The notes under the pieces are model-generated. The model saw only the letters and a list, made by a program, of their open reading frames with translations. It was not told the DNA's origin and did no database searches. A stretch of 44,935 nt of DNA from a virus. How positions within the stretch are numbered: position 1 is the first letter of the stretch; each line of letters begins with the position of its first letter. The position numbers and the translations under genes are program-made. Positions 1,805-43,679 of the stretch are shown here, piece by piece. The DNA lies in UHGV virus genome UHGV-0175244; one strand, 5' to 3'.

Positions 1805-1849
1805 TGGCACGCCCTACAGGATTCGAACCTGTGACCTACGGCTTAGAAG
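1805..1849. repeat. int-distal attachment-site core (45-bp copy of tRNA-Arg 3' end)
   Basis: tggcacgccctacaggattcgaacctgtgacctacggcttagaag is identical to 43603-43647; flanks diverge immediately outside. Confidence 0.85.
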
Positions 1850-2014
1850 AAAGTAGAGCGTTAAATAACACACTGTAATCACACATGTTTTCCGCGTTCG
1901 CATCCGGTTTTGTGTCGTTTCGTGTCGTTGTGTGACTTCCTTGTCCTTATCGCGCTTTTCAGTTACGCCACAAATGCGACACATCAAACAGGACTGGCAT
2001 CCTGCCTCAAATCG

Positions 2015-2311
2015 TTAATCGTGTGTGGCTACGCCGAGAACTTCCACATCTTCCAGCGCCTCACCTTCAATGCTCTCGCCTTCGGCTGTGATAAAAGAGC
2101 TGCCCATCAATTTTGCAAACTGCAGTTCGCCAGCCAGGCGGATAAGCAGGACGCTTCCTTGCGTCACTTTTAACGACAGGTCAACTGAGTATTTTTCAGC
2201 GATTCCGACAGTAACGGTAACAGAAGCGGCATTTTCATCGAGAGAAAGAGACTTTACCTGCCACAGAGCTGACAAGTTGAGGATATGTGCATAGAGGGAC
2301 TTTTCGTCCAT
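2015..2311 (-). CDS. hypothetical protein (between att and gtrA)
   Basis: 98-aa ORF; GAGGT about 8 nt upstream of ATG; no recognisable family. Confidence 0.35.
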   Translation of the reverse strand: MDEKSLYAHILNLSALWQVKSLSLDENAASVTVTVGIAEKYSVDLSLKVTQGSVLLIRLAGELQFAKLMGSSFITAEGESIEGEALEDVEVLGVATHD

Positions 2312-2546
2312 GGTGGTGACCTCTGGCGATTTAATACGCCATTATCATGCCTTCAGCCACCACAACAAGGGAAGACCCATGGATAAACAGTAATATCGAT
2401 CGGTAGATTTGATCAAGGCGAAACGGCTCACAGTTTTGTAAAGCCACTGTTGGCGCTGAAATTTTAATCTGGCGGCTTCGTTTATGGGTGACTAACCTCA
2501 AATTACCCACCCCGTAGCCAGCTCAGAGAGGCGCGGTTGAGTCATT

Positions 2547-2567
2547 GCCCGGTCGCCGGGCTTTTTT
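2547..2567 (+). terminator. rho-independent terminator upstream of gtr operon
   Basis: gcccgg-tcg-ccgggc hairpin followed by T6. Confidence 0.45.
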
Positions 2568-2590
2568 CATTAACCCCGCTTTACTAATTC

Positions 2591-2619
2591 TTGCCAAAAA
2601 CCAGACGTAGTGGCAAGAT
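2591..2619 (+). promoter_or_regulatory. candidate sigma70 promoter for gtrABC
   Basis: TTGCCA, 17-nt spacer, CAAGAT; weak -10; about 30 nt upstream of gtrA start. Confidence 0.25.
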
Positions 2620-2648
2620 CCGCACCTTGCGATTATAGGAATATACTG

Positions 2649-3008
2649 ATGTTAAAGCTGTTCGCTCGCTACGCTTCAGTTGGGGCGGTTAACACTCTCA
2701 TTCACTGGATAATTTTTGCTGCTCTTTACTCACAGGGCTTCAACCAGTCGATGTCAAACTTTGCGGCCTTCTGTTGCGCGGTAACCTTTTCATTTTTCGC
2801 AAATGCCAAGTGGACATTTGACGCTGAGACCACCACGTTTCGCTACATAATTTATCTTTTCTTTATGGGCGGCATGGCATCTGCAGTTGGAATGTATGCG
2901 GACAGGTCGCACTCCAGCCCTGTTATTACGCTTATTGCTTTTTCTGCCATCAGCATGGTGTGTGGATTCATTTATTCAAAGTACATTGTTTTCAAGGATA
3001 GAGGATGA
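2649..3008 (+). CDS. gtrA: GtrA-family bactoprenol-linked glucose translocase (flippase)
   Basis: ~120-aa small membrane protein; internal ATG (M14 of listed ORF) with AGGA RBS; directly precedes and overlaps gtrB. Confidence 0.8.
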
Positions 3009-3934
3009 AAATATCCCTTGTCGTTCCGGTATTTAATGAAGAAGACGCCATAACCATTTTCTATAGGGAAATCCGTCATTTTCAGCCCTTCCAGGGGGAA
3101 GAGGTTGAAATTGTCTTTGTAGATGACGGTAGCACTGACTTCACTGCTGTTCTGATGAAAGAGATGGCGCAGGAAGATAGTCTGGTCAAAAACATATTCT
3201 TTACTCGCAACTTTGGTAAAGAAGCTGCGTTATTTGCTGGGCTAGCAGAGGCCAGCGGCGAGGTGGTAATACCTATAGACGTGGACCTTCAGGACCCGCT
3301 GGAAGTCATTCCGCGCATGATTGAGAAATGGCGAGAAGGGGCTGATGTTGTTCTGGCAAAGCGCATGGATAGGTCTTGCGATAGCTACCTCAAGAAAAAA
3401 AGCGCTGAATGGTTCTACCATCTTCACAACTTAATCAGTAATCCTCAAATTGAAGAGAACGTAGGCGATTTTCGTCTTATGTCCCGAGAAGTTGTCGAAC
3501 ACATCAAGCTGCTGCCTGAGAGAAACCTTTTTATGAAGGGGATACTATCCTGGGTAGGTGGTAAGACAGATGTGGTTGAATACGTAAGAGCCGAAAGAGC
3601 CGCAGGAAAAAGTAAGTTTAATGGCTGGAAGCTTTGGAATCTGGCGCTTGAAGGGATAACGAGTTTTTCTACCTTCCCGCTGAGAATGTGGACGTATATC
3701 GGTCTCTTCGTAGCCGGTTGCTCATTTTTTTATGGGGCATACATGATTGTGGATACCCTTTGTTTTGGCAATCCGGTGAAGGGATATACATCGATAATGG
3801 TATCGATGCTATTCCTTGGCGGCGTTCAGCTGATAGGTATTGGAGTGCTCGGCGAATACATTGGCCGCATTTACATCGAAACAAAGAACAGACCAAGATA
3901 CATTACGAAAAGGGATAATGTTGAACATGAGTGA
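3005..3934 (+). CDS. gtrB: GtrB bactoprenol glucosyltransferase (GT2 family)
   Basis: 309 aa; N-terminal [10 protein letters not shown] and VDDGSTD glycosyltransferase-2 motifs; C-terminal membrane segments. Confidence 0.9.
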
Positions 3935-41778: not shown

Positions 41779-41993
41779 CGCCAGAAGAAAAGAAAAATGC
41801 GCTCAGAAGCATCGCACGCAGGGCTAACGATGAGGTTAAGGCAAAACGGCGGTCATCTCCCGCTTTAAGTTGCGACGAGATATCACGACCGATCCTCAAC
41901 GGATGCATGCCGCTGATAAAGCAGCTTGGGTTAACGCCAAGCCATCTCTATGTGGAAATCGGCATTTTGAACGGAAAGATAAAGGAGCGCTGA
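41775..41993 (+). CDS. hypothetical protein
   Basis: 72 aa; translationally coupled to neighbours. Confidence 0.4.
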   Translation: MTPEEKKNALRSIARRANDEVKAKRRSSPALSCDEISRPILNGCMPLIKQLGLTPSHLYVEIGILNGKIKER

Positions 41994-41994
41994 C

Positions 41995-42210
41995 ATGCCA
42001 GAAATCATCGATCAGGCCAACGAGCTGGCAGAGCGCCGGCTTGAAATGACCATCCAGAACATGCGCATCAACCATGCGGCGGTTTCAGCTACTCACTGCC
42101 GCGACTGCGGGGAAGAGATACCCGAGCGGCGCCGGGAACTGGTGGCGGGCTGCCAGCGCTGTGCTGACTGTCAGGAAGAAGAGGAATTACGCGGTAAGCA
42201 TCGGAGGTGA
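41995..42210 (+). CDS. TraR/DksA-family C4 zinc-finger protein
   Basis: 71 aa; CRDCGEEIP...CQRCADC zinc-finger pattern. Confidence 0.7.
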   Translation: MPEIIDQANELAERRLEMTIQNMRINHAAVSATHCRDCGEEIPERRRELVAGCQRCADCQEEEELRGKHRR

Positions 42211-42211
42211 T

Positions 42212-42547
42212 ATGGCATCTGACAAACCGATAACAGCACAGCAGGCCGCCGATTTGCTCATCGTGTCTGCGCGGGTGATCTACCGCCTGATTGAGTCTGG
42301 GGAGCTCGCCGGCCGCAAGGTCGGCAATAAGTACAGAACGACCGAGGCTGCGTGTATTGCATATTTGAAAACCCCGCGCGATCCTGTCATCGCGAACGCG
42401 GGTGAACATAAAGGAGAAGTTTTATGTCAATCACCCTCAGGGGCGGCGTGTGGCACTGTCATTTCTTTACGCCGTCAGGAAAAAGAGTTAGGCGATCTCT
42501 TGGCACGGGGGACAAAAAGCAGGCTCAGGAGCTCCACGACAAGCTGA
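42212..42547 (+). CDS. xis: excisionase-like DNA-binding protein
   Basis: ATG with [47 protein letters not shown]; 3' end overlaps int by about 124 nt in another frame (true stop uncertain). Confidence 0.55.
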
Positions 42548-43587
42548 AGGCGGAAGCGTGGCGGGTTGACCAGATCGGCGACCTGCCCGTCAGAACCTTT
42601 GAAGAGTGCTGCATCCGGTGGCTGCGGGAAAAGGACCATAAGCGATCTCTGGATGATGACAAAACCAAAATTGTTTTTTGGCTGCAGCATTTTTCCGGCC
42701 GTGATGTCTCGAAGATAACGGCGGAGGAAGTTCACGAAGCCGTTAACGGGATGATCAACCGTAAGCACCTGCAGGTGTGGGAGAGTAAGCGTGATGCCGC
42801 GATGAGGAAGGGAAAGCCGGTTCCGGAGTACAAACCACGGCAGGTTTCGCAGGCTACGAAGGCGCAACACCTTTCCTTCATTCGTTCCCTTCTCAGGGCC
42901 GCGGCGAATGACTGGGGCTGGATAAAAACAGCTCCTGTTATCAAAACCCGCAAGCCGATCAGTAAGCGGATACGATGGCTGACCAGAGAAGAAGCTGAGC
43001 GGTTGATCGAGTGCATGCCGGAGAGCATTAAGCCAGTGGTGATATTTGCACTGGCAACCGGCCTGCGCCGCTCAAACATCATCGGGCTTGAGTGGCAGCA
43101 GGTCGATATGCAGAGAAAGGTTGCATGGGTAAATCCGGAGAACGCAAAAGCGGGCAAGGCGATTGGCGTGGCTCTGAATGATACCGCATGCAGGGTATTA
43201 AGGGATCAGATAGGGAAGCACTCCCGGTGGGTGTTCGTTCACACCACGGCTAAGCATCGCCCTGATGGAACACTAACGCCCGCGGTTAGAAAAATGCGGG
43301 TGGATGACAATAACGCCTGGCGCGCCGGGTTGAAAAAAGCGGGGATCGAGGATTTCCGTTTTCACGACCTCCGGCACACCTGGGCGAGTTGGCTGATCCA
43401 GTCCGGCGTCCCGCTTTCTGTTTTACAGGAAATGGGAGGATGGGAGAGCATCGAGATGGTACGTCGTTATGCTCACCTGGCGCCGAACCACCTGACCGAA
43501 CACGCACGGAAAATTGACGCCATTTTTGGCGCTAGCGACACAAATACGACACAAGGAGGAAATCAGGCTGGTTTAAAACTGGCGTAA
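42424..43587 (+). CDS. int: tyrosine recombinase / phage integrase
   Basis: 387 aa; AAAGGAG RBS; C-terminal R...HDLRHTWAS...Y catalytic block; ends 16 nt from tRNA 3' end. Confidence 0.95.
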
Positions 43588-43602
43588 GTGCTTGTTTCTT
43601 AA

Positions 43603-43647
43603 TGGCACGCCCTACAGGATTCGAACCTGTGACCTACGGCTTAGAAG
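43603..43647. repeat. int-proximal attachment-site core (within tRNA-Arg 3' half)
   Basis: identical to 1805-1849. Confidence 0.85.
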
Positions 43648-43679
43648 GCCGTTGCTCTATCCAGCTGAGCTAAGGGCGC
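43603..43679 (-). tRNA. argU: tRNA-Arg (anticodon UCU)
   Basis: 77 nt; reverse complement ggcgcccttagctcagctggatagagcaacggccttctaagccgtaggtcacaggttcgaatcctgtagggcgtgcca; closely recalls E. coli argU. Confidence 0.9.

Follow-up and report, generated by a model that had tools for sequence, protein, structure and literature searches.

A temperate phage genome with features of Shigella serotype-converting phages at the tRNA-Arg(UCU) gene of Klebsiella pneumoniae

Introduction

Where a prophage begins and ends, how it entered its site and whether it is still a complete phage are the questions raised by the viral sequence UHGV-0175244. The full 44,935-nt stretch, here called the window, was analysed with positions numbered from its first letter. 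It contains a tRNA-Arg(UCU) gene next to folD, and an earlier note on this DNA had suggested that a 45-bp repeat derived from that tRNA sets the ends of a prophage, which would occupy the same tRNA site as the DLP12 element of Escherichia coli K-12 and would be complete. The analysis presented here leads to the conclusion, held with high confidence, that window positions 1850-43647 are one temperate phage genome of 41,798 bp, integrated in the tRNA-Arg(UCU) gene of Klebsiella pneumoniae by Campbell-type site-specific recombination.

Prophage boundaries

A repeat search of the window returned one long direct repeat: the 46 nt at 1804-1849 recur exactly at 43602-43647, with a spacing of 41,798 bp. 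By chance, about 3e-19 exact 46-mer pairs would be expected in a window of the same size and composition. The repeat consists of the last 45 nt of tRNA-Arg(UCU) and one further identical base. Both the exact repeat and the empty site described below agree with the boundaries proposed earlier, the repeat being 1 nt longer than had been thought.

The tRNA-Arg(UCU) gene, the equivalent of E. coli argU, is intact at 43603-43679 on the minus strand (ARAGORN, TCT; Rfam tRNA, 72 bits). It shares 69 of 77 nt with argU and lies 339 bp upstream of folD (44019-44885, plus strand), which belongs to the chromosomal right flank. The attR core (43602-43647) forms the 3' portion of this functional tRNA, which is the same as the tRNA found in strains with an empty site. 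The attL core (1804-1849) holds what were originally the host's own 3' 45 nt, now displaced, plus 1 nt, and similarity to empty-site and variant-flank genomes begins or ends exactly there. The integrase reading frame ends at 43587 and the tRNA at 43603, which reproduces the distance of 16 nt from the 3' end of an intact tRNA that had been reported before.

The identity block spans tRNA positions 33-77: it opens with the first base of the anticodon loop, takes in the anticodon itself (35-37) and extends to CCA. Sites of this kind, which begin in the anticodon loop, make up the anticodon-centred class of tRNA att sites ('A' sublocation, Williams/Islander; PMC4383910), and the att site of the window belongs to it. 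DLP12 shows matching geometry: it uses the same target tRNA, as had been claimed, its identity block starts at tRNA position 33 and its core measures 45 bp. The annotated start of DLP12 lies 45 nt short of the argU 3' end, on the same tRNA position as the start of the window core; the intD gene likewise encodes 387 amino acids (aa) and ends 16 nt from argU, and the tRNA segment occurs a second time at the opposite end. Between argU and folD, E. coli has the sfm operon and fimZ, unlike the window host.

Apart from the two cores, no further copy was found in the window, even when as many as 14 mismatches were allowed, and all open reading frames (ORFs) matching phage-type families fall between the two repeats. 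The left-flank ORFs at 50-589, 1057-1341 and 1342-1575 gave no Pfam or PHROG match, and those at 50-589 and 1057-1341 gave none in NCBIfam or PADLOC either. There is therefore no sign of phage genes left of 1804; additional phage genes beyond 1805, the finding that had been named as fatal to these boundaries, were not seen by Pfam or PHROG in the left-flank ORFs.

Host species, empty site and attP

When 5,426 complete E. coli genomes were searched, none matched the left flank, and the right flank with folD is only 83% identical in DNA to E. coli; the host is therefore not E. coli. Among GTDB species representatives, a 30-nt string from the tRNA-folD spacer has its sole match in Klebsiella pneumoniae ATCC 13883. 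The exact FolD protein is present in 51,786 collection blocks. Exact-protein look-ups with FolD and with the 179-aa ORF of the left flank gave conspecific loci, in some of which the site is occupied and in others vacant.

The predicted empty site was built by joining window 1-1849 to 43648-44935, that is, the window minus 1850-43647. It is 100% identical to a locus in GCA_051046375.1 (L015) across all 3,137 bp, and 98.7% and 95.4% identical to two further loci (L005 and L012, respectively). This result is the in-silico equivalent of a previously proposed check, amplification of the empty-site junction and comparison with strains lacking the element. As a conspecific empty site is 100% identical, the prophage ends are fixed at the repeat.

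Exact matches to the predicted attP junction (int-side flank, 46-bp core and gtr-side flank) were found in nine viral contigs of IMG/VR, which measure up to 50 kb; eight of them have it well away from the ends of the contig sequence. All nine show homology that passes from the int region across one core to window 1850-1983/1987, where it stops. Judging by these contigs of related phages, the ends of the prophage correspond to the two arms of a single attP of ~260 bp. The gtrA-int attP fragment of Shigella flexneri phage SfI is 261 bp long (PMC3636060).

A Logan contig (ERR15953740) measures 41,829 nt, the 41,798-bp unit plus 31 nt, and stops precisely at window 1804, as judged from the 14,962 nt compared. 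A circular k = 31 contig of the excised phage would have this length, but so would a contig broken off in the k = 31 graph at the 46-bp repeat, and a circular form was therefore not accepted as proven.

Occupancy of the site in Klebsiella

The same prophage is present at the same site in four other loci with at least 99.8% identity, three of the four reaching 99.99%, and the prophage copies adjoin two different left-flank variants (L025 and L026). The tail-fibre protein of the window was found in 32 collection blocks. Other strains have at least seven different prophage bodies at this tRNA, and their integrase is either that of the window phage or a close relative of it.

Comparison of window 1-1803 with loci L002, L003, L004, L006, L009, L023 and L026 showed that the segment between a transthyretin-like gene and the tRNA 3' end has two forms, unrelated to each other, and that the change from one to the other falls precisely at the att core. 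The form present in the window measures ~2.05 kb and has 179-aa and 94-aa ORFs without a known family match. The other form measures ~1.07 kb and ends in an integrase remnant of ~45 codons, which is of the type of IntD, the DLP12 integrase, and has ATGTCCCA arm repeats. This remnant is the scar of an older element.

A survey of K. pneumoniae tRNA genes (Berrios-Pasten et al., bioRxiv 10.1101/2020.11.02.365908) reported a tRNA-Arg locus, 'arg3A', that is occupied in more than 50% of strains; the long recombination site there takes in the anticodon loop, and the integrases group with thr-targeting integrases. The locus 'arg3A', named in the main text of that survey without an anticodon, is probably the tRNA-Arg locus of the window.

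Integrase, excisionase and candidate arm-type sites

The tyrosine integrase of the window (387 aa; 42424-43587, plus strand; PF00589, E 5e-42) belongs to the P22/DLP12/SfII family. It is preceded by an excisionase gene (111 aa; 42212-42547, plus strand; PF12728 HTH_17, TIGR01764) that overlaps the int start by 124 nt, is annotated as a 111-aa gene in sibling loci too and encodes a protein with 40% identity to the DLP12 xisD fragment. In a three-way comparison, the window integrase is 63.3% identical to IntD and 62.8% identical to the thrW-specific integrase of phage SfII, which are 72.4% identical to each other. The similarity to IntD and SfII extends across all 387 aa, identity to the other family integrases compared is 59-63%, and the catalytic motifs are kept in the alignment, including RRYAHL (the Arg, His-x-x-Arg and Tyr motifs were checked).

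Direct orthology with IntD was considered and rejected, because the window integrase is equally far from IntD and from SfII Int. Although it targets the same tRNA at the same position, these distances and its different arm motif place it outside the argU-specific branch of IntD and epsilon34, whose members would be nearer to IntD than to thrW-specific integrases and share its arm motif. The integrase of epsilon34, a P22-like Salmonella phage, has been argued to target argU (PMC2629481). Like the window phage, epsilon34 has an attP match to the 3' part of argU (43 bp) just downstream of int; epsilon34 is a phage of lysogenic conversion (PMC2629481). Unlike the window phage, epsilon34 is a podovirus with a different virion, and its integrase is placed in the IntD branch because it is ~80% identical to IntD; identity to the window integrase is 61.5%. 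By these comparisons the window integrase appears as a separate branch of the P22 family. A 99.7% identical integrase is encoded by Klebsiella phage ST13-OXA48phi12.5 (MK714353), which also resembles the window phage in its very similar early-left genes and in having tRNA genes after Q, yet has a wholly different, siphovirus-type virion and no gtr cargo.

The P-arm of attP, on the inner side of attL (1850-1987), has candidate arm-type sites CGACACA/TGTGTCG at 1911, 1921, 1966 and 1977. The P'-arm, within and just past the int 3' end (43526-43601), has two direct CGACACA sites 11 bp apart (43536 and 43547). The exact motif occurs seven times in the 44.9-kb window, four times within 403 bp of the cores. 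With one mismatch allowed, the copies form three pairs spaced 10-11 bp apart, namely 43536/43547, 1911/1921 (inverted) and 1966/1977. These arm sequences next to the core are preserved in prophages with unrelated adjacent cargo. At the equivalent position of the int 3' end, DLP12, SfII and the Klebsiella integrase remnant have a different paired motif, (A)TGTCCCA. Thus DLP12, for all its likeness in geometry, differs from the window in an integrase that is only 63% identical and in the arm motif, ATGTCCCA instead of CGACACA. We infer that the CGACACA pairs are candidate arm-type integrase sites and that this integrase branch may have its own arm code.

The proposed course of integration follows the known working of this integrase class. 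The P22-family integrase would bind the paired CGACACA arm sites in both arms and core sites around the anticodon stem-loop, and would exchange strands within the 7-nt anticodon loop. The phage would thereby supply the 3' 45 nt of the working tRNA, the original 3' fragment of the host would stay at attL, and Xis would reverse the integration.

Virion module and capsid frameshift

From TerS to the baseplate wedge, 16.9 kb of the window (6769-23623) are 97.4% identical in DNA to Shigella phage SfII in one ungapped piece with 100% coverage, and similarly close to SfI, SfIV and SfV. In Klebsiella phage records the virion module was not found beyond ~76% identity in head genes. Pfam assignments on identical sibling genes comprise the HK97-type head families Phage_capsid, Peptidase_S78 and Phage_portal and the Mu-type tail and baseplate families DNA_circ_N, Mu Gp45, GP46, Baseplate_J and Mu Gp48. 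The combination of an HK97-type head with a Mu-like tail, recognized earlier, is thus the already known SfV-type module.

The genes of the module lie on the minus strand. Those for the contractile tail, the baseplate and the head-tail connector occupy 6769-18059 (Mu gp43/44/45/46/47/48-type, sheath and tube) and are all full length relative to SfII. They are followed by the major capsid gene (18108-19312; HK97 fold, PF05065) and by a block at 19330-23614 that contains the prohead protease (19330-19977), portal (19955-21196), TerL (21390-23123) and TerS (23120-23614) genes and one for a small membrane protein. The tail fibre (5836-6765; PHROG tail-fibre families) and tail-fibre assembly (5441-5836; PF02413) genes lie at the other end. 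Only the N-terminal 103 aa of the fibre match SfII (tblastn), so that the distal tail fibre, like the assembly protein, differs from that of SfII.

The cos decamer TGCCCGCCCC was found once (23665-23674, minus strand), 41 nt upstream of terS, and is the same as the 10-nt cohesive end reported for SfI (PMC3636060). An HNH endonuclease gene (23763-24113, minus strand; PF01844), 94% identical to that of SfII, lies by the terminase genes. Between the cos decamer and the HNH stop codon, at 23722-23767, a 22-nt unit is exactly duplicated in tandem with a period of 24. Gene spacing implies the duplication in one sibling (L040) as well; in other SfV-like relatives this spacing is reduced by 22-23 nt, and in SfII a single copy of the unit spans the record ends.

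When the virion proteins were compared with those of SfII one by one, all were full length except the major capsid protein, which aligns in two frames. The gene has lost one C between 19247 and 19248, which shifts the frame at codon 22 and leads to a stop 46 codons later. The coding strand reads GACGACTT^AAAGC in the window and GACGACTTCAAAGC in SfII. The sibling L040 aligns with the window over 13,243 nt without a mismatch and with two gaps of one base; it retains the C, and its 401-aa capsid gene is intact. The C is also kept in SfII and in five of six other relatives checked, the motif not being found in the sixth. As SfII, the sibling and these five relatives keep an intact gene, the frameshift is not a programmed feature. 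Independent Logan assemblies, which match the window at 100% identity over 7,119 nt, contain the same deletion together with the 372-aa truncated product. An assembly error was therefore rejected as the origin of the deletion, and its recurrence in independent read sets means that the lesion is real and inherited.

No indel was found elsewhere in this prophage relative to the sibling copies. In the genome that provides L026 and L040 (GCA_022031515.1), the equivalent of 15909-16079 has a single-base gap of its own, and the DUF2635 gene there is called at 46 aa, compared with 56 aa. The earlier view of the element as complete does not hold for this copy, given the frameshift at codon 22, though the phage lineage is intact. 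As predicted from its genes, this copy is probably able to excise but unable to build capsids.

gtr cargo and the attL-proximal slot

Beside attL, the window carries a cargo that had gone unmentioned before, consisting of gtrA (2649-3008; PF04138), gtrB (3005-3934; PF00535) and a gene for a type-specific GtrC-like glucosyltransferase (3927-5411; PF14264), all on the plus strand. GC content falls to 0.37 across it. GtrA and GtrB are 54% and 76% identical to the SfII proteins, and GtrC is unrelated to GtrII. In circular order the genes read gtrABC-attP-int-xis, an order reported to be invariant in glucosylating Shigella phages, which also have a 46-nt core (PMC3636060), and seen in the SfII annotation too.

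The S. flexneri serotype-converting myoviruses SfI, SfII, SfIV and SfV thus share with the window phage the virion module (97.4% DNA identity for SfII), the cos sequence TGCCCGCCCC, the HNH gene beside terS, the gtrA-gtrB-gtrC-attP-int-xis order, tRNA genes downstream of Q (PMC3636060) and a 46-bp core that runs from the anticodon loop to CCA (PMC3636060). They differ in being inserted in thrW by proA instead of in tRNA-Arg(UCU) by folD, and their integrase is 63% identical.

By family membership only, the cargo probably glucosylates a surface polysaccharide. On the same basis, undecaprenyl-phosphate-glucose would be the product of GtrB and would be flipped across the membrane by GtrA, while the transfer of the glucose would fall to GtrC. 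The GtrC-type protein falls in a 90%-identity cluster of 88 sequences, one of them source-labelled Escherichia coli. The next relatives are 81-82% identical, one being from Pantoea, and none is characterised.

A 98-aa ORF (2015-2311, minus strand) between attL and gtrA matches PHROG 3469 ('UmuD-like', E 1.5e-21) and had no match in Pfam, NCBIfam or PADLOC. The attL-gtrA spacer also contains a GC-rich terminator-like hairpin with a T-run at 2547-2561 on the plus strand; SfII has an annotated terminator in the equivalent gtrA-int spacer. A search of this spacer for RNA families gave nothing credible at E<=1.

Sibling prophages (L013-L021) have differing cargo just inside attL. Four of them (L016-L018 and L020) carry Wza/Wzy-like polysaccharide genes, L019 an Acyl_transf_3 acyltransferase, and L013 genes for HicA-like and Rap1a-domain proteins. 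The attL-proximal slot behaves as an exchangeable cargo position.

Alternative explanations

Several points weigh against the interpretation given above. Excision, induction and a change of O-antigen are predictions from the sequence. The attP-bearing IMG/VR contigs represent related phages, with int DNA 95-98% identical, and not the exact window phage, and a junction specific to the cargo of the window phage gave no match in IMG/VR. The crossover point is unreadable from the sequence, both core copies being identical, and the CGACACA motif was picked after inspection of the sequence. Finally, a GTG restart at codon 30 could in principle yield an N-terminally shortened capsid protein. The last point leads to an explanation that we regard as unlikely, namely that the phage is still fully infectious, the frameshift being either tolerated, by restart at the GTG at 19226 to give 372 aa or by ribosomal slippage, or complemented by another prophage. 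Every other gene is indeed intact and the same as in sibling copies, and the frameshifted allele persists in several independent read sets. However, the frame is lost after codon 22, in the region of the N-terminal domain, which in HK97-type capsid proteins is the assembly scaffold. No obvious ribosome-binding site precedes the GTG by eye, and the 401-aa gene is intact in SfII, the sibling and five of the six other relatives checked.

The broken capsid gene and the tRNA site shared with the defective DLP12 might suggest a long-grounded cryptic prophage of the DLP12 kind, fixed and no longer able to excise. This is quite improbable, since the window prophage contains no insertion sequence (IS) element or deletion, and its int and xis genes are intact, whereas DLP12 is full of IS elements and pseudogenes. 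Copies that are 99.99-100% identical occur in other assemblies, one of them on a different left-flank variant, and an empty site with 100% identical flanks exists. There is hardly any room for a tandem or composite of two islands, or for an assembly chimera of Shigella-phage DNA and Klebsiella chromosome. Such an origin would explain a virion module that is 97% identical to Shigella phages and present in no Klebsiella phage record. It is contradicted by the lack of a third att copy, even a degenerate one, and by the recurrence of the flank-attL-gtr-tail and HNH-lysis junctions in independent NCBI, ENA and Logan assemblies. Moreover, the 41,829-nt Logan contig carries the element to its attL end, as the unit plus 31 nt (14,962 nt compared). 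A single temperate phage genome, integrated by Campbell-type recombination at tRNA-Arg(UCU), remains the preferred explanation.

Early, nin, Q and lysis regions

The nin region of the window consists, on the minus strand, of a ybcN-like gene (28785-29240; PHROG 72 'NinB/Orf', no Pfam NinB match), ninE (28615-28785), ybcO (28332-28622), rusA (27973-28335) and ylcG (27836-27976; PF26818 on a sibling gene), followed by the gene for the 269-aa Q protein (27030-27839; PF03589). The order is that of DLP12, and identities to the DLP12 proteins are 64% for YbcN, 70% for NinE, 86% for YbcO, 85% for RusA and 42% over 40 aa for YlcG. Between Q and DLP12 QuuD no similarity was detectable. The earlier statement that the nin order mirrors DLP12 is thus correct as far as ybcN-ninE-ybcO-rusA-ylcG synteny goes; its 'ninB' is a YbcN homologue, and its extension to Q fails, the window Q not being homologous to QuuD. 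Endolysin and Rz are also related to those of DLP12, which is otherwise heavily decayed and has no virion module.

The lysis genes, all on the minus strand, encode a holin (26210-26524), an endolysin (25704-26207) and Rz (25249-25707). Between Q and the holin gene lies a phage-borne tRNA-Gly(UCC) (26720-26794, minus strand; ARAGORN (TCC), Rfam). In the same Q-downstream slot, SfI has Asn and Thr tRNAs (PMC3636060) and Klebsiella phage ST13-OXA48phi12.5 has Asn and Ser tRNAs.

Replication is represented by a DnaB-type helicase (32188-33561) and an O-like initiator (33558-34643), and these are followed by a gene for a 188-aa protein whose sole Pfam match, to YdaT, is below threshold (34886-35452) and by cro (35470-35703), all on the minus strand. 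The S24 cI repressor gene (35745-36497) is on the plus strand. One locus (L048) lacks 78 bp downstream of cI, corresponding to 36814-36891, where no gene is assigned, and is 100% identical on either side, so that the site is polymorphic for an indel. The early-left operon (38222-42210, plus strand) includes kilR, gamL, recT (39178-40023) and the genes for a YqaJ exonuclease (40020-40700), an MT-A70 methylase (41122-41778) and a TraR-type zinc-finger protein (41995-42210).

With SfII there is no DNA similarity in the early, replication and lysis regions. The lysis, Q, nin, replication, immunity and RecT/YqaJ regions resemble those of Klebsiella and Enterobacter lambdoid prophages. As judged by these similarities, the phage is a mosaic of three parts, comprising an SfV/SfII virion module, the gtrABC-attP-int-xis segment of Shigella serotype-converting phages redirected from thrW to argU, and Klebsiella lambdoid early and nin regions.

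Implications

The element is a textbook tRNA-integrated temperate phage, and its integration is ordinary and well understood. What has been added to the earlier note is the gtrABC cargo, an SfI/SfII-like layout moved to argU, a separate integrase branch and a frameshifted capsid gene, none of which is surprising to a specialist. The main use of the result is a clean annotation, with exact prophage ends and the attB, attL, attR and predicted attP sequences. The capsid frameshift provides a marker that separates a disabled sub-lineage from intact copies. For K. pneumoniae, argU emerges as a reused hotspot that two or more types of integrase enter. Surface-polysaccharide genes in the attL-proximal slot are interchangeable, with gtrABC in the window and Wzy/Wza-like or acyltransferase genes in siblings, and a near-unchanged Shigella-phage virion module circulates in Klebsiella with its tail-fibre tip swapped.

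A more far-reaching possibility, which we put forward tentatively and hold to be rather doubtful, is that the phage is a K. pneumoniae counterpart of the Shigella serotype-converting phages. In that case, the virion module (97% DNA identity) would have been exchanged very recently with the Escherichia/Shigella phage pool, the phage would have been retargeted to argU by a third, separately evolved P22-type integrase branch with its own arm code, and GtrC would glucosylate the Klebsiella O-antigen or another surface glycan. If this were so, present Klebsiella O-typing from the O-antigen gene locus would presumably be blind to the GtrC modification, and the modification could affect O-antigen vaccines and phage susceptibility. 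An alteration of the O-antigen by the gtr cargo would be relevant to serotyping, vaccines and phage therapy.

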